59,923 nucleotides of DNA from a virus (lineage: Duplodnaviria; Caudoviricetes), in the IMG/VR virus record IMGVR_UViG_3300020471_000096, positions 1 to 59,923 of that record; one strand, written 5' to 3'. A model generated the notes under the pieces. That model did not search any database. It was given only the letters and a program-made list of their open reading frames with translations, and was not told where the DNA came from. This document shows positions 11,948-28,605 of the stretch, piece after piece (the stretch's first letter is position 1; each line of letters begins with the position of its first letter). The position numbers were made by a program, and so were the translations under genes.

Positions 11948-12468
11948 TATTTGGAAATTATACTGTTTAGCTTGTTCAGTAATTCGTTTTCTATTTCTAC
12001 TGATGACCTATCACGTTTATCATCCACCTTTAAAACGTCAGTAAATAATCCATGATGCTTTCCAAGTAATTCTAAACCTTTCAGCCGGACTGCATCAGTT
12101 ACATTTACATCATCAGCCATCTTTTCTATCTTCTGTAATATTACGTCACTCCTTTTGACGCTGTCCATGCTATGCAATTGCTGTTTATGCTCTAATAACT
12201 TATTTATTGTTAAGGTTATGTTAATGTCTGCTCTTAGCTTAGATGCCATTGCTCTTAAAGAATTACCTTTAGTTTTTTCTGATACATTATAGTTGTTACG
12301 ATATGCATCAATATACGTCATATCATTGAATACAATATCCCTACAAAATCCCATTTGCTTTGCTGTCAATTCTGATCCAATAACATTAGATTTTTTACTC
12401 TTATCTTTTTTCGCATTGTTATCACTTACCAATTTTAATTTAGGTTTATTATCTTTTTTATCTGACAT
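11947..12468 (-). CDS. terS: Terminase small subunit
   Basis: LTAKQMGFC...DAYRNNY HTH pattern and LKGLELLGKHHGLFTD; upstream of terL. Confidence 0.85.
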   Translation of the reverse strand: MSDKKDNKPKLKLVSDNNAKKDKSKKSNVIGSELTAKQMGFCRDIVFNDMTYIDAYRNNYNVSEKTKGNSLRAMASKLRADINITLTINKLLEHKQQLHSMDSVKRSDVILQKIEKMADDVNVTDAVRLKGLELLGKHHGLFTDVLKVDDKRDRSSVEIENELLNKLNSIISK

Positions 12469-12480
12469 ATTTTTATCCTC

Positions 12481-12500
12481 AAAAGTTTACGTAAAGTTTT
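12481..12500. repeat. Dispersed TTACGTAA palindrome, copy 2
   Basis: AAAAGTTTACGTAAAGTTTT abutting the terS RBS. Confidence 0.85.
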
Positions 12501-12749
12501 AATATCATGTTCCTTAGACCTGCGACCTTTACCAATGATAGCACTTTATTATCTTTGTTTGTAGTCTCATTTCGTGAAATATTCATTGCTGTCGATTTAA
12601 GAGGCATACAGCACATGTAAGCAGTTTAGGCTGTATTGCTACCTAAAAGTAAGTTTCAGCGTTTTTGTTGTCCACCTTGGATTACAGAAGATTTAGTCTT
12701 AGTAAGTAAAATAATGTTCCTATAAGTTAAATAATATCAACTTTAGTGC

Positions 12750-12778
12750 TTGTATTCTTAGTCTAAAAATTATATATA
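12750..12778 (+). promoter_or_regulatory. Putative early promoter
   Basis: TTGTAT-17-TATATA; predicted +1 near 12783-12785, at the first base pair of the leader RNA. Confidence 0.5.
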
Positions 12779-12784
12779 AATAGG

Positions 12785-12986
12785 ACAGCCTCTGTTTGGC
12801 AACTCGTTTGAACTGTAAAGCAAACATCCCTTTTTTAACCTACTTGGGAAATTAGGATCTCGGAGACCGGAACTTGTTTTGGTCATGACCTCGAAAAGGC
12901 AAGAGCGATACAGCCCCCACAATTCGGTCTGATGAGGATGACGATATGGGCTAGTAGTTTCTTACGAGTTTCCAAATAGAGGTTGT
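12785..12986 (+). ncRNA. ~200-nt structured leader RNA, family not recognised
   Basis: 12785-12807 pairs with 12964-12986 (20 WC, 2 GU, 1 mismatch); nested stems CATCC/GGATG, AGACCGGA/TTCGGTCT, CTTG/CAAG; possible AGCCC/GGGCT pseudoknot. Confidence 0.7.
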
Positions 12987-13023
12987 AACAATTCAAATCA
13001 ATCAAACAACAATGGAGATCATT

Positions 13024-13380
13024 ATGTACAAGAAATTAAATAAAGACGAAATCAAGTTACTCAGACTATTATCTGATGCTTACAACTTTGGAAACATTGC
13101 TGATGTAGATAGTCCAACAGCCACAGAGTTTGGTGGTAAGTTTGTTGGCAACTACGAGACAATGGATTTAGTAAATGGATTAGATCACAATCTAGTTTCT
13201 CAGATTTGTAATCCAATATCTCAGATCATAACCTCGATGATTGGTAAAGAGCTACATGATCTTTGGATCAATGGATCAAACTACGATGTAGATTGGTTAA
13301 TCAATTTTACAGACAGCCAAGAGACAGTTGGCATTGAGCCATCAGAATTTGGTGGATGGAATGTTCCAAATGAAAGTTAA
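13024..13380 (+). CDS. Early hypothetical protein (start MYKKL)
   Basis: GGAG RBS before ATG 13024; acidic. Confidence 0.8.
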   Translation: MYKKLNKDEIKLLRLLSDAYNFGNIADVDSPTATEFGGKFVGNYETMDLVNGLDHNLVSQICNPISQIITSMIGKELHDLWINGSNYDVDWLINFTDSQETVGIEPSEFGGWNVPNES

Positions 13381-13385
13381 AAAAA

Positions 13386-13407
13386 GGGGGGCAAGAAATT
13401 GCCCCTC
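13386..13407 (+). other. GC hairpin with GAAA tetraloop upstream of hammerhead 1
   Basis: GGGGCAA-GAAA-TTGCCCC; A-run on the left could make it a minus-strand terminator; no U-tract on the plus strand. Confidence 0.8.
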
Positions 13408-13460
13408 AACTGTCATCAAGTGTGTGCTTGATCTGATGAGACCAAAAGGTCGAAACAGTT
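13408..13460 (+). ncRNA. Type III hammerhead ribozyme HH1 (cleavage after GUC, C13414)
   Basis: Stem III AACTGT/ACAGTT; stem I ATCAAG-TGTGTG-CTTGAT; core CTGATGA; stem II GACC-AAAA-GGTC; GAAA. Confidence 0.95.
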
Positions 13461-13480
13461 AATCAACTATGGAGTATCAT

Positions 13481-13963
13481 ATGAATAAATATGAACAAAT
13501 TATTAAGAACTTAGAGCAAACCTTTGATGAGTTCGACAGAGAATACATTCAAAGAAAAATTAATGACTATCAAATGAAATACTCAGCCATTAAAAATTGG
13601 TGGAAAGCACCGACTAAAATTAATGGTCGTGTTGATTGGTATCATCTTCACAAAGTTGGTGGTGGCAAATCAATGGCTGAAAAATTGTATGGCATCAGCT
13701 TTCAGATGGTCAGAGAACTTGCTGTCAAAGATGCTGAGGCTGTCATCAAAGCTAGAAATAAAAAGATGGCTCTGAAACTGCAAAGTTTTGGCATCAATGA
13801 AATCTATAATACAAACCTCGTAATGAACTCTGATGGATTTCATGGTTACTACAATGTCAGAACTGACAAAGGTAATAAAACAATAACAATTAGCACAATC
13901 TTATGTGGTGGCTACAATATCCAAGCATTGCACTACAGAACATTGGTTAAAATATCTAAGTAA
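13481..13963 (+). CDS. Early hypothetical protein flanked by two hammerheads
   Basis: GGAG RBS before ATG 13481; C-terminal ILCGGYNIQALHYRTLV motif. Confidence 0.85.
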   Translation: MNKYEQIIKNLEQTFDEFDREYIQRKINDYQMKYSAIKNWWKAPTKINGRVDWYHLHKVGGGKSMAEKLYGISFQMVRELAVKDAEAVIKARNKKMALKLQSFGINEIYNTNLVMNSDGFHGYYNVRTDKGNKTITISTILCGGYNIQALHYRTLVKISK

Positions 13964-13968
13964 AATAT

Positions 13969-13988
13969 GGGGGCAAGAGATTGCCCCC
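13969..13988 (+). other. GC hairpin with GAGA tetraloop upstream of hammerhead 2
   Basis: GGGGGCAA-GAGA-TTGCCCCC; paralogous to 13386-13407. Confidence 0.8.
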
Positions 13989-14045
13989 TTAACTGTAATG
14001 CAATGTGTGTTGCATCTGATGATCTCAAAAGAGTGAAACAGTTAA
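13989..14045 (+). ncRNA. Type III hammerhead ribozyme HH2 (cleavage after GUA, A13997)
   Basis: Stem III TTAACTGT/ACAGTTAA; stem I ATGCAA-TGTGTG-TTGCAT; CTGATGA; T-CTC-AAAA-GAG-T; GAAA. Confidence 0.9.
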
Positions 14046-14063
14046 TCAAATATGGAGACAATC

Positions 14064-14519
14064 ATGAATAAAGAAAAATACTTAGAAAAATCTAAAATGC
14101 TAGTAAGACTATATACCAAATCAGTACAACAAGGTTTGGATGTAAAAGAACTCAGAAGAACAATGAAAAAAATAGCTATCGATGATATGCGATACTATCG
14201 TATTTGTGACGAGTTGGAAGAAAAGGCTAAGAGATTTTCTTACATCTATAAAAACTCAGAGGATGGATACGTTGTTCCTATTACTGAGGGATGCGATTGC
14301 GATGGTGTTCAATATCGAACTGTTGGTAAGCCACAAAAGGCTGTGCCTCTTGTTCTAGAAAAGAATGAAGACGAGGCTTACGAATGGGCAGATGGAACAA
14401 TGGACATTTATTATGTCAAACCATCTGTGGCATTGAGGATGGAAAATAAATCTGTTGATCGTGTAGCTGAGGCTTACGAAAATGGGCATCCACATTCAAT
14501 AACTTTATCAAGCATTTAA
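14064..14519 (+). CDS. Early hypothetical protein (start MNKEK)
   Basis: GGAG RBS; GCDCDGV and AEAYENGHPH motifs. Confidence 0.8.
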   Translation: MNKEKYLEKSKMLVRLYTKSVQQGLDVKELRRTMKKIAIDDMRYYRICDELEEKAKRFSYIYKNSEDGYVVPITEGCDCDGVQYRTVGKPQKAVPLVLEKNEDEAYEWADGTMDIYYVKPSVALRMENKSVDRVAEAYENGHPHSITLSSI

Positions 14520-14547
14520 CCAACCAACTGCAAGAGGAGATACTATA

Positions 14548-15174
14548 ATGCAGAAAACTAAATCAATCATTGCTGACGATGTCGTTAAGCAATTAGCTAA
14601 ACAAGAGCAACAGCACAACCTTTTAAAAGGATCTAACAAGCAGAACTCTGCTGACATGAGTGCTATTAGATTGGATCAGTATGCGACAGCAATGATACCA
14701 ATTAATTCAATACCTAGATCTGATACCGGTAATATTTCAGAGGATGCGACCAATGAATTATTGACCACGTTTCAGACACGATGCGATATGACAAAAGGTC
14801 AAGCTGACTTGTTTAAAAGACATTGTGTACTTTTTACAAACAAGCATGACCTACCATCAAGCAATCTTACCAAGACCTACATCTTGGATCTGTTTGCTAA
14901 GTTGGATATCAAATCCCAAGCTAGTTTGATTAATCACAATAAAGGAGAGGATGTTAAATCTCCATTGGATACAATCATCGATAAGCTAGTAGGTCTGAAG
15001 ACTAAGACCGGTAAGCAAAGAGATGGTTTGATTATGACAGCAAAAGAACTTGAAGAGTTCGAGGTCAGACTAAAGAACAGATTTGAGATTGCTGACAAAG
15101 GTAGGAAAGCAATTGATGATGCTGAGAAAGAGCAGAAAGTTGTAGACAAAACTGTTGAGGCTTTACTCTCTTAA
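14548..15174 (+). CDS. Early hypothetical protein
   Basis: GAGGAG RBS; 208-aa ORF. Confidence 0.85.
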   Translation: MQKTKSIIADDVVKQLAKQEQQHNLLKGSNKQNSADMSAIRLDQYATAMIPINSIPRSDTGNISEDATNELLTTFQTRCDMTKGQADLFKRHCVLFTNKHDLPSSNLTKTYILDLFAKLDIKSQASLINHNKGEDVKSPLDTIIDKLVGLKTKTGKQRDGLIMTAKELEEFEVRLKNRFEIADKGRKAIDDAEKEQKVVDKTVEALLS

Positions 15175-15228
15175 TCAAATGCACAAATTGAGGCACGATT
15201 AATTTCGTGTCTCTGCTTGTTCATTTGA
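15175..15228 (+). other. Long interrupted intergenic hairpin (RNase III-site-like)
   Basis: TCAAATG/CATTTGA, ACAA/TTGT, 3x3 internal loop, GAGGCACGA/TCGTGTCTC; no U-tract. Confidence 0.65.
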
Positions 15229-15260
15229 ACAACAACGACAATAAACAGAGGAGATATTAA

Positions 15261-15566
15261 TTGTCACAAAAAAAAATATTAGAAGATAAACTAATACAAA
15301 GAACAGCTAAACTAGTTGATGCACAAAATGATTTGAAAGATCTTAAATTCAAATTGCATGAGGCTAATACTAAACTAGTTGAAACTGAGGCTCTGCTGAA
15401 AAATGCAGAGTTTATAGTTGATCATGCCATAGAAAATTTCATGGTTAATCAGCTAGAACATCTGACTAATGACCAAGCAATTGATCTAGTCGCTAAGTAT
15501 TTTGGTACAGAATATAAATCAAAGGCTGTATCAATTATGAATAAATTTATCAATCAATCTAAATAA
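15261..15566 (+). CDS. Early coiled-coil hypothetical protein
   Basis: GAGGAG RBS, TTG start. Confidence 0.75.
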   Translation: MSQKKILEDKLIQRTAKLVDAQNDLKDLKFKLHEANTKLVETEALLKNAEFIVDHAIENFMVNQLEHLTNDQAIDLVAKYFGTEYKSKAVSIMNKFINQSK

Positions 15567-15576
15567 GGAGTATCGT

Positions 15577-16653
15577 ATGCGAATACATGAAATGAGAACA
15601 GCAATCAAAAGCTGTATTATGAATAATTGGAGAGTAAGAGCCAATGGGGGCAGTAAGGATAACCTAGTCCATCCTTATGCTGAGAGTGGTGTTGGTCAAG
15701 GCAAGACAACATCTGTCAGATCATTGGTTACTGATCCGGATTTATTATCTTTAGCTAAAGAATTATTTGGCTACGATAAGGATAAGCTAGGCTTTTTAAA
15801 TTTTAGCTTGGCACAGCTAGATCCTAATGAGTATGCCGGTTGGTTAGTACCGGCTAAAGATGGCGAAAGCATGAGAAGATTACGACCTATGTTTGTGCCT
15901 ACTGAGGGATGTGGAATTATATTTGCTGACGAGGTCGCTCAAGCAAACCAAGTTCTGCACAACCTTTTTGGTCAAGCTGTAGATGAGCATCGTGTTGGAG
16001 ATTTTATCATTCCGGATGGATGGGTAATTGTTTCAGCCGGTAATCCTTTATCTGCAAGAGCCGGATCTAATAAGTTGCCATCACAACTTGCTGACAGATT
16101 TGATTTTCTTAATCTTGAGGTCAATACTGACGATGTATTAAGTTACTATGCATCCAATAATGTTGATCACAGAATTACATCATGGATTAAGTTTGATGAT
16201 CAGCATCTGCATAACTTTGATGTATCAGCAACCGGTAATGCTACACCAAGATCTTGCCAACGTGCCGGTGTTTTAATTGGCATGGATATAGATCACAGTA
16301 CATTACGAGGCATGTTGAATGGTCAGATTGGCGAGACAGCATCAGCTAGTTTAATGGCTCACATAAAGCTGTATGAAAAGCTACCGGATTTTGACAGCAT
16401 TGTTAAAGATCCTAGCACTACACAAATACCGGAAGATCGTGGTGTTTTATTTGCTTTGTGTGGATCACTAGCTAGTAAGATGAACATGACAAACTGTGCA
16501 AGTATCCTAACTTATATCCAAAGGATACCGGAGCAAGAGTTCATGGCATTTATGCTTAAAGATGCAGTACTAAGAAACAAGACCTTGGTTACTCATCAAG
16601 CTATGAAACAAGTATTAGGATCTCAAGGTAACTTGAAAGATCTATTACTTTAA
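15577..16653 (+). CDS. MoxR/dynein-related AAA+ ATPase
   Basis: Walker A variant SGVGQGKT, Walker B IIFADE, sensor SAGN, LADRF, TPRS. Confidence 0.88.
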   Translation: MRIHEMRTAIKSCIMNNWRVRANGGSKDNLVHPYAESGVGQGKTTSVRSLVTDPDLLSLAKELFGYDKDKLGFLNFSLAQLDPNEYAGWLVPAKDGESMRRLRPMFVPTEGCGIIFADEVAQANQVLHNLFGQAVDEHRVGDFIIPDGWVIVSAGNPLSARAGSNKLPSQLADRFDFLNLEVNTDDVLSYYASNNVDHRITSWIKFDDQHLHNFDVSATGNATPRSCQRAGVLIGMDIDHSTLRGMLNGQIGETASASLMAHIKLYEKLPDFDSIVKDPSTTQIPEDRGVLFALCGSLASKMNMTNCASILTYIQRIPEQEFMAFMLKDAVLRNKTLVTHQAMKQVLGSQGNLKDLLL

Positions 16654-16662
16654 AACTTTATA

Positions 16663-16694
16663 TCTGTGGTACTGCGTACCTGTAGTGCCACAGA
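16663..16694 (+). other. 13-bp intergenic hairpin
   Basis: TCTGTGGTACTGC/GTAGTGCCACAGA with GU pairs. Confidence 0.65.
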
Positions 16695-16696
16695 CA

Positions 16697-16716
16697 AAAA
16701 CTTTACGTAAACTTTT
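16697..16716. repeat. Dispersed TTACGTAA palindrome, copy 3
   Basis: AAAACTTTACGTAAACTTTT just upstream of the RBS of the VWA gene. Confidence 0.85.
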
Positions 16717-16729
16717 TTTGGAGATTTTA

Positions 16730-17950
16730 ATGCAGAATTTAAAACTAGAAGATAAGTTCTCAAAGATTAGGATACAGCTACTATGGGATCGTGACGATAA
16801 AGGTCATGCTTTTTATGGTGCTGTCTTAGTCAAGATGAAGATTATCGAAAAGAACAGCATCCCAACATTTGCAACTGATGGGCGAGACATATTCTATAAC
16901 AAAGAATTTGCTGAGAGTTTAGATTTCGAGCCACTCAAAGGTGTAGTTGTTCATGAGGTTGGTCATAGATTTCTTATGCACCATACAAGACAGCAAGAAC
17001 GTGATGCTGAGATTTGGAACATAGCATGTGATTTATCAATGAACCAAGTTCTTAAAAGATCCGGTTTTGTTTTACCAAAAGGTGCTTTGTTTGATCCACA
17101 GTTTGATGGATGGATGGCTGAAAAGATTTATAACTTTATCTATCCACAGATCAAAGCTAAACAGCAACAGCAACAGCAACAAGGTCAAGATGGTCAAGGC
17201 GATCAAGGGGATCAATCAGATAATGGCGATCCAACTTGGTTACAGCCACAATCATGGGGCAACATCGAAGACAATGTTACTGAGGGCATGTCTCAAGCTG
17301 AGATCAGCGAAGAAGAGGCTGATGTTAAAGAGGAGATATTCCAAGCTGTCAGACAAGCTAAAGAACGTGGAACATTACCGGCAGAGGTCAAGCAAATGGT
17401 CAAGGTTATGAAACGTGCTGAGATCAATTGGGAAGACGTTGTTGAAAGGCATCTTGAGGGCGATGTTCCTCATAATTATAGCTATCGCAGAATACATAAA
17501 AAGTTCTACTACACTCATGAGATGATTGCTCCAACACTTGAGCATATTGGTGTTGGTCATATTGTTGTGGCTGTGGATAGTTCCGGCTCTGTATCAAATA
17601 AAGAGTTGCAGTATTTTCTTGGTGGTCTCAATGCTATGGCATTAGATCTTAAACCAAAATCTATAACTGTAATTACATGCGACAGCAAAATACAAAATGT
17701 TATCAAGTATGATCAAGGCGATGAAATAAAAATGATATCTGCTGATGGTCGTGGTGGTACATGTGTTATGCCGGTGTTCAACTACATTAAAGAAAATGAT
17801 CTTGAGGTAGACAGCTTTATTTATTTTACTGACATGGGCATATATGATTTTCCTACAGAGGAACAGCCATATCCGGTTCTGTGGGTAAGCACAGACCTAC
17901 GTGCTGATAATGCACCTATTGGTCAAACAACCTATCTGAAAGTGGCTTAA
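16730..17950 (+). CDS. HExxH metallopeptidase-like + VWA domain protein (DUF2201-type), partner of the AAA ATPase
   Basis: TFATDG, HEVGH, WNIACD, Q-rich linker, MIDAS VDSSGS, GRGGT, YFTD; GGAG RBS before ATG 16730. Confidence 0.88.
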   Translation: MQNLKLEDKFSKIRIQLLWDRDDKGHAFYGAVLVKMKIIEKNSIPTFATDGRDIFYNKEFAESLDFEPLKGVVVHEVGHRFLMHHTRQQERDAEIWNIACDLSMNQVLKRSGFVLPKGALFDPQFDGWMAEKIYNFIYPQIKAKQQQQQQQGQDGQGDQGDQSDNGDPTWLQPQSWGNIEDNVTEGMSQAEISEEEADVKEEIFQAVRQAKERGTLPAEVKQMVKVMKRAEINWEDVVERHLEGDVPHNYSYRRIHKKFYYTHEMIAPTLEHIGVGHIVVAVDSSGSVSNKELQYFLGGLNAMALDLKPKSITVITCDSKIQNVIKYDQGDEIKMISADGRGGTCVMPVFNYIKENDLEVDSFIYFTDMGIYDFPTEEQPYPVLWVSTDLRADNAPIGQTTYLKVA

Positions 17951-17976
17951 TGCTACTTTTAGATAAAAACAAGGCT

Positions 17977-18029
17977 CTAGGAACGTCACACAGAGGCGAA
18001 ACGATATGTCTGTGTGTGATTGTACCTAG
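17977..18029 (+). other. Hairpin upstream of hammerhead 3
   Basis: CTAGG/CCTAG outer stem and CACACAGA/TCTGTGTG inner stem. Confidence 0.6.
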
Positions 18030-18042
18030 GGATTTTAACGAT

Positions 18043-18095
18043 GCTGATATAGGAATGTGTGTTCCTACTGATGATTGCGAAAGCATGAAATCAGC
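18043..18095 (+). ncRNA. Type III hammerhead ribozyme HH3 (cleavage after AUA, A18049)
   Basis: Stem III GCTGAT/ATCAGC; stem I TAGGAA-TGTGTG-TTCCTA; CTGATGA; T-TGC-GAAA-GCA-T; GAAA. Confidence 0.9.
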
Positions 18096-18123
18096 CAACT
18101 ACTATCATTATATGGAGTATTTT

Positions 18124-19116
18124 ATGATACATAATTTTGGAAAAAAACAAGATCCTAAATCTCAAGAGTTTAAGGATCAAATAGTCTTAAAGCATTATCT
18201 CAACTTTTTAAACGAGGGATACAAAGCATTTGGATTAAACGAAAACCAAAAAGCTAGTCTAGTAAAAGCCGGATCTAATTATTCATATCATGCAGACGAT
18301 TTATCTGCTGAAGAAAAAGATTTTGTTTTTATGTTTACCAAGCACAAAGATCATTTTGGCAATCATGGTTTAGACAGCATTTACAATTGTAGTGCTTGGA
18401 TCAAGCAACACAGAAAGGCTCGTAAAGATAAGTCTGCCATTTACAGCAATAAGATTGATGGCAAAAAAGTATTTCGTAAAGAACGTAATTACGAGCATGG
18501 TTTCTTCAATGGTCAAGCTGTTAACAGCAAGTATGCTGTACTCACTAATGCCTTTGCTAAAAAATGGTGGGATGACAATATGGCTAGAACCAATGTCAAG
18601 ATTAGTGCTGATGCATTAAGAGCAGAAACAGCTATTAAACCATCTACTGTAGGAAGAGCAGATAATTGGCAGTACTACGAGCATTTCAATGAGGTTTCTT
18701 TGTCTCCATCATGGTTTAAAAATGTCTACATGAAAGGTTTGGCAACAACAGTATACAAAAGCAAAACAGCATTTGTTGCTAGTGCCAAGCCTCTCAAAGT
18801 TTCTGACAGAATTACAGCTAATGGTCTTGAGGCTTATACTGTTGATATCATTACAAGCCACGATGGTATTATCAGCATGGAGAAAGATCTGTATTATTTG
18901 GTTTACCAAACAAAGGCTTGGACAATTGAAGAAACACAGCAAGGCATGGGCAATATACCTTTTAGGGGCAACGACAGAGAAACTGCTCAAACTTACAATA
19001 ATCGTAGGTATAACATAGCTGAGACTATAAACTGTGCATCCTCAAACTTTAGAAGAGCAGAGAATGTCATGAGTGGCAGAGTTCAGCGAAACATACTTAA
19101 TGCAATGGGAGTGTAA
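18124..19116 (+). CDS. Early hypothetical protein (true start MIHNF, not 17950)
   Basis: Leader TATGGAGTATTTTATG matches the other ribozyme-linked leaders. Confidence 0.8.
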   Translation: MIHNFGKKQDPKSQEFKDQIVLKHYLNFLNEGYKAFGLNENQKASLVKAGSNYSYHADDLSAEEKDFVFMFTKHKDHFGNHGLDSIYNCSAWIKQHRKARKDKSAIYSNKIDGKKVFRKERNYEHGFFNGQAVNSKYAVLTNAFAKKWWDDNMARTNVKISADALRAETAIKPSTVGRADNWQYYEHFNEVSLSPSWFKNVYMKGLATTVYKSKTAFVASAKPLKVSDRITANGLEAYTVDIITSHDGIISMEKDLYYLVYQTKAWTIEETQQGMGNIPFRGNDRETAQTYNNRRYNIAETINCASSNFRRAENVMSGRVQRNILNAMGV

Positions 19117-19117
19117 A

Positions 19118-19573
19118 ATGCAAAAAATAAAATTACAAAAGCATCATAAGGATTTGGCTCATGATTTAATTTATGAGGGGATGTCAGACTATGAAAGGAT
19201 GACATGCCCTTATGTTTATCATTCCGGATTTCTGCAAAGAGAATTAGGCAGAAATTATGATGCTGTCAGAACTAAGTTTATGTCCAAAAAAGACAAAGCT
19301 AGAAAACTAAGTAACATCAGAAAGTATAGGTTTTTGCACTTGCAGTATAAAGATCCATTACTAGAGGAGTTACAATCAGCTAATATTCTACTTAATGTAA
19401 AGCAACATCTTAAAGATGAAATTAATTCATATGAAGAGATGCAAGATAGAATTGATGGTGGAGAGCATTGGGAAAATGTTTGCGATCAACCGGAGATTTT
19501 TTCCGGTAGAAATGAACTTGCTGAGAGTTTACTTGATAATATTAATAAATGGGAGAAATCTGATGAGGAATAA
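19118..19573 (+). CDS. Hypothetical protein
   Basis: GGAG RBS before ATG 19118. Confidence 0.7.
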   Translation: MQKIKLQKHHKDLAHDLIYEGMSDYERMTCPYVYHSGFLQRELGRNYDAVRTKFMSKKDKARKLSNIRKYRFLHLQYKDPLLEELQSANILLNVKQHLKDEINSYEEMQDRIDGGEHWENVCDQPEIFSGRNELAESLLDNINKWEKSDEE

Positions 19574-20608: not shown

Positions 20609-20611
20609 CAC

Positions 20612-20647: not shown

Positions 20648-20715
20648 GTGTGTAGCATAATAGTATATGAGAAATAATACTCACACTTAATTAATAAGTG
20701 CCACCAAAGCATTAG

Positions 20716-21225: not shown

Positions 21226-23014
21226 AATAATTATTGTATTGCTTGTCTTTTGGTTTTGGTTTCAACATCTTAGCAACGTCTGATATTGCATCATATCTAG
21301 ATGTAAGTTTATCATATTCTAATTCACATTCTCCAATAGCACCAACCCAAGAAAATCTACATTTCCAAACAAGTATTTCTGTAACATTGCTTTCAGATGG
21401 ATTTGTTCTATGCACAGTTAATCCAACATCTGATTTACTAAAGAAACTTGCAGAACCGGCAATGTCGTAACCTTTTGGTGGTGGCACAGTTCCATCTTCT
21501 CTTCTAACCATCTTTGTTGGATGAGCGACAAACCATATGTGGATACCATGTGCTTGTGCAAATACTCTAAGTTTTGTTAGCATATCAGATATCCAATCAG
21601 TTTCAGACGTAGTGATATCTTTTGCTATATAATTGTATGGATCTATAACACAGCCTCTAATACCAAATCTTAGAACAGCAGTTTTAAGTCTTTCTAGTAT
21701 GCTGTCTAACGTGGATAGCGAACCATCTGCTTGATAGAGAAAACAAAAATTATCTGACACAAACTTTTTGCCATTCTGTAATTCTTGTGTAGTCATTCTA
21801 GGTGTCATCCCACTAAAAAAAGGTTTTCCAATATACTTGCTGATTAACTTAGCAATATGTATTCTTGGCTCGTTTTCAAAAGAACAAATACCAAATTTCC
21901 AACCTTTTTGTTTAGATATGTTTATCATTATTTGATCTACAAACTCTGATTTACCGGAGGATGGATGACCGGTAACAACTGTAAGCTGACCCTCTACTAC
22001 TGTGTATAGATTATCAACGTCTTTATATCCGGTGCTTGTTCCACTACCAACACCATTTTCAAATATCTCATCTACTTGATCATAAAAATGTTCTGCATCG
22101 TATAAACCTGAAACCGGATATGGGATAGAGTTTTTTACAATATCTTTTAATTTATCTATGCCATGTTTTGTTAATATCTCGTTTGCATCTTTACAATCTT
22201 TTGGATAAACAATTTTAAAACATTTATCTTTACCAACTCTTCTAGCTATTTCTTCTTCCATAGCTTGTCCAGCTTGATCGTTGTCCATAGCTATTATTAT
22301 TTTTTTACAAGTGTCTAGCTTTTCTTTTGAGTTCCAAATAAATTTAAATTTATTATCGTCACGAGGATCTATTTTACCATCAACAACTTTCATGACAGCA
22401 CCATGTGGTATTGAGATGCTGTTTGTGTAGCCTACTTCCATAAAAGATAGGCAATCCATCTCTCCCTCACAAATTATTATGTCTTCATCTTTATTTATGT
22501 TTTCTACGTTATAAAATTTATCTGCTTTACCAAAGCTAGAAAAACCTTTGTCCGGAAAAGATCTTACTTTGGCAAACTGATACCCACCATTGTTGTTTTG
22601 ATATGGGAAAACCAAACAAGAAACTTCTTTTTTTATTGATCCAATATATTGTTTCGTAAATTTTAAACCGGCTTTTTCTGCTGTTTCTTTGGATATACCT
22701 CTGCTGTTTAAGTATTCTAAGCAATCATTATTTTCTTCAATGCCAATCCATTTATCAGCTACATTCTTATTGATGCTTACAACCTTTTCTTCTTCCACAG
22801 ATTTTCTCCTCGCCATATTGTCATCATTGAATTTTATGCCACCATCTTCCCCACAATGCCAACAGTAATACATAATCACATCATCGTGTACTTTTAACGA
22901 TAATGTTTTTTGCTCTCTCTTTTTTCTTGTATGGGAACAGAATGGGCATATTGCCTTGTGTTGCCCATCTCCTAATTTGTAGGCAACACTTCTTAGTGAG
23001 TGTTTTATCTCCAT
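21191..23014 (-). CDS. T7 gp4/Twinkle-type primase-helicase
   Basis: Zn ribbon CPFC...CWHC, TOPRIM EGEMD/DND/KDANE, SF4 Walker A GHPSSGKS, IDPYN, VAHPTK; AGGAG RBS before MEIKH. Confidence 0.93.
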   Translation of the reverse strand: MEIKHSLRSVAYKLGDGQHKAICPFCSHTRKKREQKTLSLKVHDDVIMYYCWHCGEDGGIKFNDDNMARRKSVEEEKVVSINKNVADKWIGIEENNDCLEYLNSRGISKETAEKAGLKFTKQYIGSIKKEVSCLVFPYQNNNGGYQFAKVRSFPDKGFSSFGKADKFYNVENINKDEDIIICEGEMDCLSFMEVGYTNSISIPHGAVMKVVDGKIDPRDDNKFKFIWNSKEKLDTCKKIIIAMDNDQAGQAMEEEIARRVGKDKCFKIVYPKDCKDANEILTKHGIDKLKDIVKNSIPYPVSGLYDAEHFYDQVDEIFENGVGSGTSTGYKDVDNLYTVVEGQLTVVTGHPSSGKSEFVDQIMINISKQKGWKFGICSFENEPRIHIAKLISKYIGKPFFSGMTPRMTTQELQNGKKFVSDNFCFLYQADGSLSTLDSILERLKTAVLRFGIRGCVIDPYNYIAKDITTSETDWISDMLTKLRVFAQAHGIHIWFVAHPTKMVRREDGTVPPPKGYDIAGSASFFSKSDVGLTVHRTNPSESNVTEILVWKCRFSWVGAIGECELEYDKLTSRYDAISDVAKMLKPKPKDKQYNNYYEPKEYKDIDF

Positions 23015-23085
23015 ATTAATCTCCTTGCTACACAATTCATAATTATTTTAAAACAAAGAAATCGTCAACAAAAAAATTTCTAGTA

Positions 23086-23153
23086 TAATATTTATAAATA
23101 TTCTAAAGAAGTTTATATATATTATTTATATATATATTAATATTTATAAATAT
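23086..23153. repeat. AT-rich element with two AATATTTATAAATATT palindromes
   Basis: Palindromes at 23087-23102 and about 23139-23154; 23086-23116 is an inverted copy of 11590-11620. Confidence 0.75.
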
Positions 23154-23479
23154 TACATACTGCATGTTTTGTTTTGAATTACCTTTCTAAGTTTCTCCCC
23201 TAAATATCTAGCCACTACCGGCTTACTAGTTAATATTTCTTTTATTAATTTTTCCATCCTATCAGAATTTAAAGAACTTAAATCACATACCATAATAAAA
23301 TCATCTGATACAATCCATTGACCTACAGCAAGTTTTTGTCTTTTGTTTCCAAGATATGAATCAGAAATCGCTTGGCAAATCACATGTTTCCAAAGTCGAG
23401 ATTCTGATGTGAGTTCGTGGTGCGTTTCTGTCCAACCCCCAATAAACGATTTTTTGTTTGACTTGTCTGTCATTAACAT
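23153..23479 (-). CDS. Hypothetical protein
   Basis: LWKHVICQAISD motif; start uncertain because it overlaps rusA. Confidence 0.6.
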   Translation of the reverse strand: MLMTDKSNKKSFIGGWTETHHELTSESRLWKHVICQAISDSYLGNKRQKLAVGQWIVSDDFIMVCDLSSLNSDRMEKLIKEILTSKPVVARYLGEKLRKVIQNKTCSM

Positions 23480-23753
23480 AAATTTTTCCTTGCATACAAT
23501 CTAGAACAACACTTTCGTCTAGATCCGGTCTTCTTGATGCATAGTATATAATTAACTCTACTTTCACATTTGTTTCAATAAGATTTTCTAATTGAGGGCA
23601 TTGCTTTGCAAAATTCTTTTCATAATCTCTAGCTTTTTGAGATTTTATAAGTGCCATTCTTTTACCAAAATGCACTATTTTTCTTGAGTTTCCTTTGGAT
23701 GCCGGTTCTCCATAAACTATAAAATTAAAACTTTTATTTATTTGTATTGACAT
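23361..23753 (-). CDS. rusA: RusA-family Holliday junction resolvase
   Basis: GEPASKGN, RRPDLD, LD, NDRQV motifs. Confidence 0.85.
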   Translation of the reverse strand: MSIQINKSFNFIVYGEPASKGNSRKIVHFGKRMALIKSQKARDYEKNFAKQCPQLENLIETNVKVELIIYYASRRPDLDESVVLDCMQGKIYVNDRQVKQKIVYWGLDRNAPRTHIRISTLETCDLPSDF

Positions 23754-23774
23754 TATTTTACCTATATATATATT
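23747..23774 (+). promoter_or_regulatory. Sigma70-like promoter of the recombination operon
   Basis: TTGACA-16-TATATT upstream of the AGGAG RBS of 23800. Confidence 0.55.
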
Positions 23775-23799
23775 TATTGTAGCATAATAGGAGAAAAAT

Positions 23800-24705
23800 A
23801 TGAAAATTACCAATAAGTTTGGTATGCCACAACCTTTCGTAGACTTTGCCATAAACGACAAATACAGTAAAGGTAAAGCTGACATATCAGTAACGTCATT
23901 AATCGATAGTCCAAGAGTTAGAATAATGAAAGATGTCTACAAAGAAGACATCGAAATAGATGCTGTTGACATGGTTTGGGCATTATTTGGAACTGCTGTA
24001 CATTCAGTTTTAGAACAATCAAATCCATCAAAAGATATAATTACAGAGGAGAGATTATATTCTAAATTAAATGGTTGGATTATATCCGGTGCTTTGGATA
24101 GGCAAGAAATAGTAGATGGAATTTCAACGATAATTGATTATAAGGTTACATCTGTTTGGTCAGTTATTTATGGAAAGGTAGAGTGGGAAAGACAGCTTAA
24201 TTGTTATGCTTGGCTGTGCAGAGACAAACACAAATTTACTCAGCATAAAGTTGGTGCTTTAAAAATATGTGCAATCCTCAGAGATTGGAACAGAAGAGAT
24301 GCTGAGAAAAAAGAGAACTACCCTCAAGCACCAATAGTATTTGTTGATATACCTATGTGGGATGATGAGGTGGCACACAAATACGTATCAGATAGATTAT
24401 CATTACATCAAGAGGCTCAAGTTAATTATGACTTGAATGAAGAACTTCCATTCTGTTCTGACGAAGAAACATGGAAGAAAAACGATACTTGGGCAGTAAA
24501 GAAAAAGGGTCAGAAAAGAGCATTGAGAGTTTTAGATAGTGAGGAAGAGGCTAATCAATATATGGGTTGGCACAATGAAACTGACAAAGCATATACAAAG
24601 AAAACAGATTTAGAATTAGAGTTTCGTAGTGGCGAGTACACACGTTGTGGCAACTATTGTTCAGTTGCTGATTTTTGTAATCAATATAAGGAGAGAATAA
24701 AATGA
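23800..24705 (+). CDS. PD-(D/E)XK (RecB/Cas4-like) exonuclease
   Basis: GTAVHSVLE, SGALD, IDYK, QLNCYAWL and C-terminal RCGNYC...FC. Confidence 0.85.
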   Translation: MKITNKFGMPQPFVDFAINDKYSKGKADISVTSLIDSPRVRIMKDVYKEDIEIDAVDMVWALFGTAVHSVLEQSNPSKDIITEERLYSKLNGWIISGALDRQEIVDGISTIIDYKVTSVWSVIYGKVEWERQLNCYAWLCRDKHKFTQHKVGALKICAILRDWNRRDAEKKENYPQAPIVFVDIPMWDDEVAHKYVSDRLSLHQEAQVNYDLNEELPFCSDEETWKKNDTWAVKKKGQKRALRVLDSEEEANQYMGWHNETDKAYTKKTDLELEFRSGEYTRCGNYCSVADFCNQYKERIK

Positions 24706-24932
24706 AAGAACAAAAAACAAAAAAAGTGGTTAGAAAAGTTAAGAAGAGTGGCTTTGTTAAATTAAAGCCAAAGATATCCGGAATGAGAGAAAAGGATAAA
24801 TCTTTAATTGCTGATCACATAGAAGAGGCTACTAACAAAGGAAAGCCTATTAAAAAGTTTTTCTTAATTAGATGGTTTAATTACGTGGGCAAGAAATACA
24901 ACGAGTTCGTTGACAGAATGTTTGGTATGTAA
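24702..24932 (+). CDS. Basic hypothetical protein
   Basis: ATGA-type coupling within the operon. Confidence 0.6.
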   Translation: MKEQKTKKVVRKVKKSGFVKLKPKISGMREKDKSLIADHIEEATNKGKPIKKFFLIRWFNYVGKKYNEFVDRMFGM

Positions 24933-24933
24933 G

Positions 24934-25170
24934 ATGAGCGATAGAATTGATTTATGTTACTTACCAACAAGAGGATTGTGCAGAATAAACGAGGTTTTAG
25001 ATGAAAGTTTTTTTCCACAGAACAAGGGCGATATCATTACACAAGAATTGATAACCTATGAAAGAGTGGATACCGGAATAAAGAAAACTACATTCCAAAG
25101 AAATTTTCTCAAGACCTCGCATTATGACAGCACAAGGACAGAAATATTTTCTACAGAGGAGAAAGGTTAG
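24934..25170 (+). CDS. Hypothetical protein
   Basis: Fills the operon gap; start MSDRID. Confidence 0.6.
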   Translation: MSDRIDLCYLPTRGLCRINEVLDESFFPQNKGDIITQELITYERVDTGIKKTTFQRNFLKTSHYDSTRTEIFSTEEKG

Positions 25171-25173
25171 TAG

Positions 25174-25866
25174 ATGAAAAGTGATATACCGGAAAAGGTA
25201 GCAGATACCTTGAGAGAAATAGGCATGACACCAAAACAAGCCGGTTGGAATTGTCATGGTACTTACGTGTTACTGCATAAAGCATTGGAAAAAGTTGCTG
25301 TACACAGAAAAATAGTTTTTAAAGAGCCAACAATTTTAGAATGTAATTCTGAAAAAAAAGTCGTCAGTTTACTTGTCACCGGAACTATGGGAGACAAATC
25401 AGAATGGTCTATTGGAGAGGCATCTCCATCCAATAATAAGAATAGCTATCCATATGCCATGGCTGAAAAGAGAGCCAAGGACAGAGTTGTCTTAAAATTA
25501 GTTGGTCTTCATGGCGATGTGTATGCAGAAGATGAGGCAGATGCATTTAAAGAAGAAAGACCGGCTGAAATTAAAGGTGGAACTTTAGACAATGGATCTG
25601 ATGAAGAAGAAAAAACTATAGGTGTTACAGATATTAAAACAGAAAAGGTTCAATATATATCTACAAAAAAAGGTGCTGAAGAGGTTAAAGAGATATTCTT
25701 AACATTTATGCCGGACACCAACATTGATGAACTTAGAAGTTTTAAAAATTCTAATGCAAAGGCTCTAACGGCACTAAAAGAATTTGACCCTAATGTTTTT
25801 GGAGAGGTCTCCAAGGCTTTTATAGAGAGGGCAGATAAACTCAAATCACAACAAAAGGAGAGTTGA
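25174..25866 (+). CDS. Putative single-strand annealing/recombination protein
   Basis: GEASP...AMAEKRAKDRVVLK motif and position between exonuclease and SSB-like gene; function inferred. Confidence 0.55.
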   Translation: MKSDIPEKVADTLREIGMTPKQAGWNCHGTYVLLHKALEKVAVHRKIVFKEPTILECNSEKKVVSLLVTGTMGDKSEWSIGEASPSNNKNSYPYAMAEKRAKDRVVLKLVGLHGDVYAEDEADAFKEERPAEIKGGTLDNGSDEEEKTIGVTDIKTEKVQYISTKKGAEEVKEIFLTFMPDTNIDELRSFKNSNAKALTALKEFDPNVFGEVSKAFIERADKLKSQQKES

Positions 25867-26184
25867 ATGAGTGAAGAAAAAAAAGACTATCCACCTAGTG
25901 GAACTTTGTTTATGAGTAAAAATAAGAGATCTGATAGATCTCCGGATTACACCGGTCAATTTGAATTGTCATACGATGTAATAGAAGACTTAGTAAGGCA
26001 AATGAAAGATGGTGTAAAGAAACCCCAATTTAATATATCCGGTTGGAAAAAATACAGTAACAAAACCGGAACATCATTTTTATCTTTGAGGGCAAACATA
26101 TATGATCCACCTAATAAAGATGAAGAGAAAAAAGAAGAAAAGCCAAAAGAAGACTTTTCTGCACTAGAAGAAATAACATTTTAA
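25867..26184 (+). CDS. Putative ssDNA-binding protein (DUF736-like)
   Basis: SPDYTG, ISGWKK, FLSL and an acidic tail ending in F. Confidence 0.6.
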   Translation: MSEEKKDYPPSGTLFMSKNKRSDRSPDYTGQFELSYDVIEDLVRQMKDGVKKPQFNISGWKKYSNKTGTSFLSLRANIYDPPNKDEEKKEEKPKEDFSALEEITF

Positions 26185-26195
26185 AGGAGATTGTA

Positions 26196-26429
26196 ATGGA
26201 TGATATTTCAACAAAAACAGATGTGCCTAACGTGAGTTTCGAGGCTGTTAAAACATCTATGATGCAAGATAAAAACGGAACTAACATAAGGCTTACCATA
26301 CATCCCAACGATGTTCCGGCTGAGTTACACAAGGATTGGGTTGGCTCTAGGTACATGGTTGTTATGGTTAAGTTAAAAGAAGATGGTACTCCGGATAAGG
26401 GGGATGAAAATGCCACGGAAGAGATCTAA
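26196..26429 (+). CDS. Hypothetical protein
   Basis: AGGAG RBS; IHPND...VGSRYMVV. Confidence 0.75.
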   Translation: MDDISTKTDVPNVSFEAVKTSMMQDKNGTNIRLTIHPNDVPAELHKDWVGSRYMVVMVKLKEDGTPDKGDENATEEI

Positions 26430-26649
26430 AGACGAGATTGTTGAAAATGCTGAGTATATTACACTTGATGGTCTAGCACATATGCTCATGGTTTCAAAAC
26501 AGTCAGTATACAAGATCGTAAATACCAAGGAACGTAACTTTCCCAAGCCATTCCCTCTGATGAAATCTGAAAAAAGAGAAAAGAATATTTGGAGTAAAGA
26601 AGAGGTTAAAAAGTGGCTTGAAGAACAACGTAGTGAAAAAGTTACGTAA
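26410..26649 (+). CDS. AlpA/excisionase-like winged-HTH regulator
   Basis: LAHMLMVSKQSVYK...FPKP...WSKEEVKKWL. Confidence 0.8.
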   Translation: MPRKRSKDEIVENAEYITLDGLAHMLMVSKQSVYKIVNTKERNFPKPFPLMKSEKREKNIWSKEEVKKWLEEQRSEKVT

Positions 26650-26653
26650 AGTT
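26636..26653. repeat. Dispersed TTACGTAA palindrome, copy 5 (degenerate)
   Basis: AAAAAGTTACGTAAAGTT directly before ATG 26654. Confidence 0.6.
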
Positions 26654-27097
26654 ATGCCTAGGAAAAAATACGAATCGGAAGATAACCTAGATAAAGAAAA
26701 AAATGTTTTAAGGCACATGTCAGTAAAATGGGATGTGTCTTATTCTAAGTTACCAATATCCTATAAATTAGATTATGCCATGTACAGAGATGAAAAGCTG
26801 TTGGGTTTTGCTGAAGTGAAATGTAGACAGAACTCGATACATGATTTTTCAACTTACATAATATCTTTGTCTAAGGTAATTAAAGCCAGACGTCTGGCAT
26901 CTGTTACCGGAACAAAATCTGTTTTAATTGTAAGTTGGTCTGATGCTACCGGTTGGATAAATTTCTTTTCAGACTTTGATGTAAAGCAAGGTGGTAGATC
27001 AGATAGAGATGATTGGCAAGATCAAGAGCCGGTTTGCCACTTTGATATTAAGGATTTTAAAATAATTTCACACTCTGATTTGTCGGCAGCCAAATAA
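26654..27097 (+). CDS. PD-(D/E)XK endonuclease-like protein
   Basis: LDY...FAEVKCR catalytic pattern; GGRSDRDDWQDQEP. Confidence 0.7.
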   Translation: MPRKKYESEDNLDKEKNVLRHMSVKWDVSYSKLPISYKLDYAMYRDEKLLGFAEVKCRQNSIHDFSTYIISLSKVIKARRLASVTGTKSVLIVSWSDATGWINFFSDFDVKQGGRSDRDDWQDQEPVCHFDIKDFKIISHSDLSAAK

Positions 27098-27106
27098 AGG
27101 ACAGAC

Positions 27107-27655
27107 ATGAAAATTGATAAAAAAGTAGAAAACATGCCATGCAAAGTAAATGGAGTTAAACAAAATCTCAATGGCTATATTATTTCTTCTATTGGCTATA
27201 CTGAAGAAGAGATATCCAAACAAATTAAACTAAATCACTTGGCAAAGCATTTAAGGGATCTAGCAGACAAGCTAGAGAGTCAAACTAATTTTAACAAAGA
27301 CTTAGATAGTTTCTTGGTTAGAAACTCTTTAGAAATGAATTTGACCCAAAAGAAAGCAAAGAACGATGCAGAAGAAAGATTTAAAAACAAAGCTAGTAAC
27401 AGATTAAATGCTAGGAGAAAAGCTGAGAAAAGGTTGCAAGTTAGTGCTTACAAACAAGAAGTGGGGTGTATGGCTTGTGGATACAAAGACAATCCGGACA
27501 TACTACATTTTCATCACAGAGACCCTAACACCAAGATTGATAATATTTCTAGATTGGTTGGCAAGAACCATTCTATGGAAAAGATAAAAGCAGAAATAGC
27601 TAAATGTGACTTGCTTTGCATTAGCTGTCATCACAAGGAGCATGGACTAAAATGA
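27107..27655 (+). CDS. HNH endonuclease-domain protein
   Basis: CMACG...LHFHHRDP...KCDLLCISCHHKEH. Confidence 0.8.
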   Translation: MKIDKKVENMPCKVNGVKQNLNGYIISSIGYTEEEISKQIKLNHLAKHLRDLADKLESQTNFNKDLDSFLVRNSLEMNLTQKKAKNDAEERFKNKASNRLNARRKAEKRLQVSAYKQEVGCMACGYKDNPDILHFHHRDPNTKIDNISRLVGKNHSMEKIKAEIAKCDLLCISCHHKEHGLK

Positions 27656-27912
27656 AACTAGCAGACGGATACGAAGATGCTTTTGTTGGCACTACCATAA
27701 GTGCCTTCAGTAGGAAACAAGTGGCATTATATGATTATGATAAATGTATAATGATACTCATGAATGATAACAATTGGGATGAAGACGAGGCTATAGAGTG
27801 GTTTAACTTTAACACAATAGGATCTTGGGTAGGAGAAGATACTCCCATATTTGTTAATATGCATAAACTAGATGTCATAAACGATTTCTTGGAAGACGAT
27901 GAAGAAACTTAA
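27652..27912 (+). CDS. Conserved small acidic phage protein
   Basis: ADGYEDAFVG...EAIEWFNFNTIGSWVGEDTP. Confidence 0.8.
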   Translation: MKLADGYEDAFVGTTISAFSRKQVALYDYDKCIMILMNDNNWDEDEAIEWFNFNTIGSWVGEDTPIFVNMHKLDVINDFLEDDEET

Positions 27913-28357
27913 AACCATACCAATGAGTATTCAAGAAGCTAATGAGTTCGTTGCGAACTTTCACAGACATAGTAAACCAACTCAAGGTGGAAAATTTTCT
28001 ATTGGAGCTTCTTTAGATGAATTGCATGGTGTAGCAATTGTGGGTAGACCAATTGCAAGAAGATTAGATGATGGATTTACAGCAGAGGTATTGCGTGTGT
28101 GCGTAAAACCAAATGCCCCAAAAAATACTTGTTCGTTTTTGTATGGAAGATGTTGGAGAATATGGCAACAAATGGGTGGATTAAAAATGATTACATATAC
28201 ATTGCAAAAAGAATCTGGTGCTAGTCTTCGTGGTGTAGGTTGGAAGATAATGGGAGAAACTGGTGGTTGGAAAGAAAACAAAGGTTGGACTACTAGACCG
28301 AATAGAGATTGGTTGCCAATTCATGGACAACTTAAATTTAGATGGGAGATAAAATGA
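27899..28357 (+). CDS. XF1762-family (Mom/GNAT-like) protein
   Basis: ANEFVANFHRH, GVAIVGRPIAR, AEVLR, CSFLYG, ITYT...ESGASLR motifs. Confidence 0.75.
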   Translation: MKKLKTIPMSIQEANEFVANFHRHSKPTQGGKFSIGASLDELHGVAIVGRPIARRLDDGFTAEVLRVCVKPNAPKNTCSFLYGRCWRIWQQMGGLKMITYTLQKESGASLRGVGWKIMGETGGWKENKGWTTRPNRDWLPIHGQLKFRWEIK

Positions 28358-28575
28358 ATAAAGATAATGTAAACAGACCAAGCCACTACAGAAAAGGTAA
28401 AGTAGAATGTATTGATGCGATTAAATCAGCCCTAGGCGAGGGCTACGAGTATTACCTACAAGGAAATATAATTAAATATGTTTGGAGATACAGGCACAAG
28501 CACAAGAATAGTTTAGAAGATTTGATGAAAGCAGAATGGTATCTCAAAGAATTAATAAAAATAAAAAAGAAATGA
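28354..28575 (+). CDS. DUF3310 (T7 gp1.7-like nucleotide kinase) protein
   Basis: VNRPSHY...ECIDAI...GNIIKYVWR...EDLMKAEWYL. Confidence 0.85.
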   Translation: MNKDNVNRPSHYRKGKVECIDAIKSALGEGYEYYLQGNIIKYVWRYRHKHKNSLEDLMKAEWYLKELIKIKKK

Positions 28576-28588
28576 CTATGAAAAGTCG

Positions 28589-28605
28589 TTCCCCGGCACG
28601 GGGAA
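28589..28605. terminator. Hairpin between convergent middle and late operons
   Basis: TTCCCCG-GCA-CGGGGAA. Confidence 0.55.

Follow-up and report, generated by a model that had tools for sequence, protein, structure and literature searches.

Genome-wide avoidance of restriction sites and palindromes in phages has been documented in classical work. Phages T5 and BF23 are described, in a passage of PMC10644984, as resisting type I, II, and III restriction when the sites lie outside the terminal repeats, and for T5 an excerpt of 10.1101/866236 states that the only EcoRI sites to count are those within the first-step-transfer DNA. In Murciavirus (Autographiviridae), the type I motif of Mme2I is reported to matter nowhere but in the early-injected region; the authors suggest that selection acts sub-genomically on the DNA injected first and, in the same excerpt, regard local avoidance as sensible only with fixed ends (PMC12455610). 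The leading regions of conjugative plasmids are first-entering DNA with anti-defence genes, according to part of PMC11541004, and an excerpt of PMC13478746 reports that in 1751 enterobacterial plasmids this region was not consistently depleted in short palindromes. Here, we analyzed virus record IMGVR_UViG_3300020471_000096 (Duplodnaviria; Caudoviricetes), covered whole as one contig of 59,923 bases (the window). From one contiguous segment of this DNA, which we call the zone, several dozen words of 4 to 6 nucleotides (nt) have been lost on both strands. Avoidance of restriction motifs in a leading region is already known; the zone is an unusually clear and broad example.

As in the first-step-transfer DNA of T5 and BF23, so far as the excerpts describe it, sites matter or are avoided in one segment and are retained elsewhere. 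A repeat-rich noncoding region borders the T5 segment; here, a repeat-rich noncoding region lies at one border, and conserved palindromes lie around the other. The T5 segment makes up 7.9% of its genome within a terminal repeat of ~10 kb, whereas the zone is 14 to 19 kb long and no long repeat was seen. Also unlike T5 and BF23, this virus appears to have a podovirus-like virion, and stepwise entry is something that we infer from the sequence. The likeness to Murciavirus, within the limits of the excerpt, is that of a marine phage whose restriction motif would be relevant in the leading region only; one bipartite type I motif was defined there by experiment, and dozens of short words are defined here by sequence. 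Unlike in T7-type genomes, the late genes here would face against the direction of entry. The missing short palindromes, together with the genome-wide avoidance of 6-bp palindromes, CGCG, and CCWGG, recall classical phage avoidance, but the main effect is confined to one segment and includes nonpalindromic tetramers. Compared to the plasmid leading regions, as characterized in the excerpt, depletion in this phage zone is nearly complete.

Missing words and the CCGG excess

A preliminary description of the window had noted that its early and middle block (11950-28600) was almost free of CCWG/CWGG. As a codon control, we used 300 shuffles preserving the protein and codon counts of each gene, with the zone taken as 11451-29800; as a Markov control, we used the third-order expectation for 11951-29500. 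Expectations given below are from the codon shuffles unless otherwise stated. CCWG/CWGG occurred 14 times in the zone against 99.7±6.5 expected (lowest shuffle, 81), while the rest of the genome held 529 copies against 562.7±11.8. By the Markov control, CCAG/CTGG was found 8 times instead of 87.6 and CAGG/CCTG 6 times instead of 60.5. Because the shuffles separate the zone from the rest in this way, codon or amino acid composition is ruled out as the cause and the depletion is not genome-wide. It is real, regional, and larger than first described. Our recount agreed with the sites listed earlier: exactly two lie between 13000 and 20550, at 16679 (intergenic) and 20166 (within a doubtful 107-amino-acid [aa] open reading frame [ORF]), and the few further sites up to 28600 are eight (20864, 22107, 22269, 26886, 26894, 28215, 28260, and 28491). 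Avoidance was also alike on both strands, as had been stated.

The earlier view that the avoidance reaches beyond the Dcm-type site CCWGG was correct, but the vocabulary is far wider than CCWG. Tetramer classes at ≤25% of expectation numbered 7/134 in the zone and 0/135 in each of two zone-sized late blocks that served as controls. For pentamers, the numbers were 38/469 in the zone and 1 to 3 of about 460 in the late blocks. The depleted, or banned, words include CCAG/CTGG, CCTG/CAGG, GGCC, GCGC, GGWCC, GGNNCC, GCWGC, GCNNGC, GANTC, CCGC, ACGC, GGTGA, CCTTC, and CASTG, and many of them are short and palindromic, with or without an interruption. From simple composition, about 17 copies each of GGCC, GGNCC, and GGNNCC were expected and 0, 0, and 1 were found (CCNGG occurs once); on the same basis, GCNNGC was seen 0 times against 21, GCNGC 4 against 21, and GANTC 6 against 62. 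Relative to the codon shuffles, GCGC was absent (8.0±2.4 expected; 63 copies in the rest of the genome), and strong deficits were seen for CCGC/GCGG (2 against 16.5), ACGC/GCGT (9 against 31.9), CCGA/TCGG (8 against 39.5), and ACGG/CCGT (10 against 41.6). The pentamers GGTGA/TCACC (1 against 17.1), CCTTC/GAAGG (1 against 16.8), CACTG/CAGTG (0 against 10.3), GAAGC/GCTTC (3 against 21.9), and GAGCT/AGCTC (3 against 18.1) contain none of the banned tetramers. Many words on the list correspond to the sites of the named type II enzymes HaeIII, Sau96I, NlaIV, HhaI, Cac8I, HinfI, HphI, HpyAV, and TspRI.

The word GATC was mildly enriched in the zone (86 against 69.0±4.6), and in one lineage of relatives (lineage D) it reached 11 to 14 per kb around the ATPase gene described below.

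Ordinary genome-wide restriction avoidance is present too, with a smaller set of words outside the zone. CGCG, CCWGG, CGWCG, GGACG/CGTCC, AAGCTT, CAGCTG, GAATTC, and GGATCC have no copy anywhere in the genome; in the late DNA, 15 copies of CGCG and 25 of CCWGG were expected. The zone lacks 31 of the 64 six-base palindromes, where the shuffles lack 16.1 on average, and the late DNA lacks 23, compared to an average of 6.2 in the shuffles. The late tail and fiber region has gaps of its own, with no CCGG in 43968-54094 (10.1 kb) and no GATC in 46745-50678 (3.9 kb); these may be swapped modules of other histories.

The word CCGG is in excess, being found 61 times in the zone against 21.4±2.9 (highest shuffle, 30) and against 15.6 by the Markov control. 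Our recount confirmed the 11 copies reported in the AAA ATPase gene at 15577-16653. CCG and CGG in the zone stand almost always within DCCGGH, with a preceding C in 1/61 and a following G in 0/61. Codon choice in the zone depends on the next codon as follows.

Proline before a codon starting with G: CCG in 23/27; in other contexts, 4/125
Serine (TCN), proline, threonine, or alanine before glycine: NCC in 29/35; in other contexts, 64/743
Glutamine before a codon starting with G: CAG in 0/56; in other contexts of the zone, 48/136

If CCAG, CCTG, and CCCG, with their complements CTGG, CAGG, and CGGG, are banned, then CCG before G and NCC before GGN are the only synonymous spellings left. These two forced contexts hold 52/56 of the coding CCGG words of the zone. 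We also ran a recoding simulation in which the codons of the zone were redrawn from the codon usage of the late genes. It gave 7 to 10 CCGG with no ban, 29 to 37 with CCWG/CWGG banned, and 47 to 50 with CCHG/CDGG banned, compared to 57 seen. The simulation left 62 to 76 CCGH/DCGG where 15 are seen, so these words are banned in their own right.

The bans thus force the CCGG excess, which was neither chosen as a replacement nor produced by biased repair, and selection acts at the DNA level through context-dependent synonymous codon choice. The earlier suggestion that CCGG is put in place of CCWG does not hold, as CCGG is the sole synonymous escape once CCAG, CCTG, and CCCG are banned and recoding accounts for 47 to 50 of the 57. 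A drive like that of very-short-patch repair was considered as well. In Escherichia coli, this repair raises CCWGG and lowers its T:G neighbors. The zone is similar in that CCGG is in excess and its transition neighbors, CTGG/CCAG and TCGG/CCGA, are depleted, but the CCHG/CDGG ban reproduces the excess, and a bias arising from repair would not end where a border is set by position. Such a drive toward CCGG is ruled out by the codon-context counts and the recoding simulation. An enriched word may therefore be the mere shadow of bans on its neighbors, which calls for caution in scans that read enriched words as signals.

Borders of the zone and its relatives

To draw the borders, we counted banned words per 500 nt; the choice of words is circular, but the borders are informative. 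The features needed to follow them are these.

9790-11310, minus strand: large terminase gene terL (phrog_38, E 1e-100), just outside the zone, with banned words at normal density
11531-11946 (416 nt), no strand: noncoding stretch holding the left step, between the 75-aa ORF preceding terL and the end of terS
11750-25400, no strand: zone core by the banned-word index and codon shuffles, with terS, early genes, and replication genes
11947-12468, minus strand: small terminase gene terS (phrog_51, E 9e-8), with one banned word, at 12158
15577-16653, plus strand: MoxR-type AAA ATPase gene (phrog_1297, E 3e-52), with 11 CCGG, the anchor for finding relatives
25400-31000, no strand: right ramp by the banned-word index, with the last early genes and ~2.4 kb of the 3′ end of the giant gene
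28696-37320, minus strand: giant gene for a 2874-aa polyvalent virion protein (LPD38 and DUF7178 domains), its 3′ end inside the ramp

Late DNA has an index of ~19 per 500 nt. At the left border, the index falls from 24 (11001-11500) to 5 and then to 1, that is, within ≤500 nt. In 13611-25375 (11.8 kb of the core), there are 10 matches to banned words where the late density would give roughly 450. On the right, the return is gradual: the counts from 25001 onward are 1, 1, 2, 4, 3, 3, 9, 12, 7, 10, 11, and 11, followed by 22 from 31 kb. The block first described is therefore a real regional one, but it is wider than was given, with the step at ~11.53 to 11.75 kb and the ramp at 25 to 31 kb. The zone measures 14 to 19 kb, which is between a quarter and a third of the genome, with a core of 14 kb. 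It is set by position and not by gene class, since terS, a gene of late function, is inside it, as is part of a virion protein gene.

The noncoding stretch at the step carries AT-rich direct and inverted repeats at 11541-11634. Just inside the zone, at ~11790-11850 (mainly ~11806-11845), a G-rich tract of GGG/GGGG runs spaced 1 to 3 bases apart interrupts an otherwise AT-rich stretch. The predicted fold of the boundary DNA was nothing special (z-score, −1.0). The stretch 11531-11946 is a candidate genome end or packaging site. Among the relatives introduced below, 9/20 contigs end within 11.25 to 12.55 kb, which strain variation could explain equally.

Two palindromes recur in the genome. The 14-nt palindrome ATATTTATAAATAT occurs only four times, as two pairs, at 11548 and 11605 (the step) and at 23088 and 23140 (intergenic, upstream of the primase-helicase gene). 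The 18-nt palindrome AAASTTTACGTAAASTTT, with the 13-nt core TTACGTAA, is found at nine places within 2 mismatches of the core, giving 18 strand-wise matches against 1.9 expected. Its copies at 11935, 12487, 16703, 20595, 28620, 30489, 32949, and 41136 are mostly intergenic or flank terS, and their positions are kept in relatives, including two inside the giant gene. This palindrome may serve as an operator, as a terminator working in both directions, or as a site where entry pauses.

In one public run (X5), the summed depth of contigs with ≥90% likeness falls from ~54 (10301-11634) to ~5 to 12 (11635-30300). This fall lies at the step; the late module is therefore common to more strains than the early module.

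Relatives were collected from IMG/VR, with 23 loci found by the ATPase, 4 more by an alignment of four ATPases, and 26 loci by the C terminus of the giant protein. The zone is kept in four lineages, with ATPase identities of 94 to 100%, about 72%, 63%, and 59%. In 12/12 loci containing the terL start, the left step falls between terL and terS, and the words return gradually on the right in all 20 loci profiled. In these relatives, the ramp covers 2.4 kb at the end of the giant gene and a further 1.8 kb past its stop codon. As synonymous sites are saturated at these divergences, the zone has been maintained and not inherited. The earlier suggestion to look for the pattern in relatives is thus answered by a zone, step, and ramp that recur in four lineages with partly different word lists.

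The turnover of words bears on what is being read. In lineage C (59% identity), locus L022 has 0 CCAG/CTGG against 52 expected but 40 CCTG/CAGG against 51. The base after CCTG is T in 39/40 cases in L022 and in 31/32 in L021, and GCNNGC is present. Since lineage C drops CCAG/CTGG and keeps CCTGT, CCWG is two independent words, the second of which is banned in this lineage only as CCTGV. The single reader of CCWG that was first proposed is ruled out by this separation, and both words are only two of several dozen.

Explanations for the zone

We consider it probable that the zone is a segment kept free of words read by host restriction-type nucleases, being exposed before the phage is protected, i.e., that it is the first-entering DNA. 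The preliminary description had offered evasion of a host defence by first-entering DNA, as in T5 and T7, as one of two possibilities. This is the best-supported reading, but with many words in place of one CCWG reader and with an order of entry that we infer. Packaging would produce fixed ends, and one of these would lie in the repeat-rich stretch 11531-11946. That end would enter the cell first, and entry would proceed rightwards, along the early plus-strand genes. The remainder would be delayed or slow to enter, nearer to the two-step transfer of T5 than to T7; a T5-like second step fits better because the late genes would be transcribed against the direction of entry. Early products would then neutralize restriction, and the late DNA could thus keep its sites. 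The ramp would reflect exposure falling with time of entry. The shape is asymmetric: the left border drops within ≤500 nt, the right one is a ramp of 5 to 6 kb, and both are conserved, as expected if exposure fell with distance from the first-entering end. As in the first-step-transfer DNA of T5, depletion is found in one contiguous segment only (14 CCWG/CWGG against 99.7±6.5 there, 529 against 563 in the rest).

Several observations weigh against first-entering DNA. The genes do not all run along the direction of entry as in T7, the late genes and the block 20716-23885 being reversed, and T7-type entry driven by transcription therefore cannot account for how the remaining DNA is taken up. At 14 to 19 kb, the first-entering segment would be larger than that of T5 (7.9% of its genome). 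In the circular assembly and assembled contigs, no physical end of the genome was located; one contig of run X1 spans the step, and the assembled contigs of 4 of the 24 public runs listed have no clustered molecule ends, a result that is neutral on fixed ends. In scans of the ORFs with PHROG and Pfam, no anti-restriction protein was recognized. A host search in genome collections returned a single weak match of 35 residues in a metagenome-assembled genome of Planctomycetes and identified neither the host nor its restriction systems. To our knowledge, no named enzyme reads the nonpalindromic tetramers CCAG, CCTG, ACGG, CCGA, and ACGC, and a literature search on CCAG as a recognition sequence found none. 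The more distant phages 023Pt_psg01 (terL 56% identical) and Vibrio phage 252E42.2 (giant-protein C terminus 26% identical) are both without a zone of this kind. Modules also recombine, with terS 66 to 75% identical and the terL N terminus 82 to 100% identical in the same contigs. Last, CAATTG is reversed, with 2 copies against 15 in the late DNA and 10 against 6 in the zone, a contrast not predicted by a rule that the zone bans all that the late DNA bans.

Other explanations were weighed against first entry. The whole genome could enter at once, with only the early segment having to stay uncut for as long as it takes to express anti-restriction and recombination-repair functions, and late cuts being tolerated or mended. 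The zone does encode a PD-(D/E)XK exonuclease, a RusA resolvase, and further nucleases, and the assembled contigs give no evidence for fixed ends or stepwise entry. We nevertheless find this unlikely. It predicts buffers on both sides and not a step of ≤500 nt with a ramp of 5 to 6 kb; moreover, any cut would expose ends to host exonucleases that would soon reach the zone, and the many frequent-cutter sites of the late DNA would fragment the genome. It is quite improbable, too, that the contrast is the legacy of an early module that evolved under a different host range or restriction landscape before being joined to the late module. Uncoupled terS and terL identities within contigs, the roughly five-fold fall in X5 contig depth at the step, and the gaps of the late DNA (CAATTG and the 10-kb stretch without CCGG) would all suit a mosaic. 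However, zone, step, and ramp are kept down to 59% identity with saturated synonymous sites while the word list changes, a decaying inherited signature would not remain at 0 of about 50 expected, and a joint made by recombination would have sharp edges at either end and would not be expected to grade through a gene.

The identity of the reader is a related question. Escape from host methylation and methyl-dependent nucleases, from nucleoid proteins, or from some defence that reads sequence but is no classical restriction enzyme could apply at least to the nonpalindromic tetramers, for which no named type II enzyme is known to us, and strand symmetry agrees with any such reader at the DNA level. 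Most of the other banned words are classical palindromic sites, though, and the same positional explanation would be required, with only the reader being different; we regard this as very unlikely. The second possibility in the preliminary description, a phage-delivered factor that attacks CCWG-containing DNA, found no support, as one factor would not explain many unrelated words or their turnover between lineages. In its more general form, a phage nuclease, brought in or made early, would destroy host DNA at the banned words, and the phage DNA then present would have to lack them. The phage has HNH and PD-(D/E)XK nucleases and a giant protein of injected type, and a comparable idea, that T5 protein A1 attacks DNA in a similar manner, was raised in the available portion of 10.1101/866236. 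T5 A1 and A2 were not named among the hits of our general PHROG and Pfam scans, in which no direct homology test was made. One or a few nucleases would not read several dozen unrelated words with a list that varies between close lineages, no nuclease domain was found in the 2874-aa giant protein by Pfam-type scans, and stepwise entry would be required as well, all of which leaves such self-immunity highly improbable.

Within the reading as first-entering DNA, a more specific proposal can be made, which we put forward tentatively and with some doubt. An uncultured clade of marine podoviruses may have arrived independently at a T5-like two-step delivery, in which a leading segment of 14 to 19 kb would run from the terS-side end to the AAASTTTACGTAAASTTT array (28620, 30489, and 32949), which would signal entry to stop or pause. 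The list of banned words would then be a catalogue of the nucleases of the host population, including undescribed readers of nonpalindromic words of 4 to 5 nt (CCAG; CCTG followed by A, C, or G). If first entry is correct, sequence alone would reveal how an uncultured and widespread group of marine phages delivers its DNA, namely its fixed ends, which end leads, and how much enters before protection, and the banned words would list the specificities of restriction systems met in nature. The case is clean and broad, with several dozen words, a 14-kb core, a step and a ramp, and word turnover between lineages. Clear phage cases of this kind are useful test beds, because plasmid leading regions lack consistent motif depletion, as stated in the excerpt of PMC13478746.

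Genes and repeats of the genome

The two ends of the contig (1-110 and 59814-59923) overlap by ~110 nt with one homopolymer difference (T10/T11). The assembly is thus circular, with arbitrary contig ends and a true length of ~59.8 kb. The public runs carrying this DNA are marine metagenomes. The best match of terL is seawater phage 023Pt_psg01, followed by HTVC023P-type pelagiphages, and megablast against named phages gave no match. SU10-type adaptors, a T7-type tail-fiber N terminus, and a GP4-type fiber point to a tailed phage of podovirus-like virion type; an ejection protein and the adjoining giant protein are further markers of that type.

The minus strand of 1-11310 and 28696-59646 carries structural and lysis genes. 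Early and replication genes fill the block 13012-28357, most of which lies on the plus strand; in addition to small unassigned ORFs, it encodes the MoxR-type ATPase, the DUF2201 protein, the primase-helicase, RusA, PD-(D/E)XK and HNH nucleases, and the Mom-like protein. All late genes, together with the block 20716-23885, run opposite to the early plus-strand genes in the ORF map. Further genes named in the text are these.

7151-9574, minus strand: portal gene
13012-13380, plus strand: first early ORF, 122 aa, acidic (isoelectric point, 4.2; net charge, −12)
16685-17950, plus strand: DUF2201 gene with metallopeptidase-like and VWA-like domains, partner of the ATPase (PF13203, E 1e-36; PF09967, E 4e-18)
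21191-23035, minus strand: primase-helicase gene (phrog_239, E 2e-98) with Toprim and DnaB_C domains
27899-28357, plus strand: Mom-like DNA modification gene (phrog_1384, E 1e-32)

The acidic 122-aa ORF has 18 homologues, none of them named. Its fold, predicted from 16 sequences at low confidence with a mean pLDDT (predicted local distance difference test) of 66, had no match in the PDB by Foldseek at E values up to 0.001. We considered it as a candidate DNA mimic with a possible anti-restriction role. A Pfam scan of 71 ORFs and segments of the giant protein found no DNA methyltransferase domain, Rfam and tRNA scans found no RNA genes, and a scan of the zone for sigma-70-type promoters gave 62 sites against 79.6±8.2 in shuffles, i.e., no excess.

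Some strains lack the Mom-like gene: in contigs from runs X2 and X3, position 27893 is followed by 14 other letters and then by 28363. Two consecutive early ORFs, both starting ME..M, have the upstream string GAAACAGTTAATCAA in common (13439-13468 and 14022-14051), which may have arisen by repetition of a start region or may have a regulatory role.

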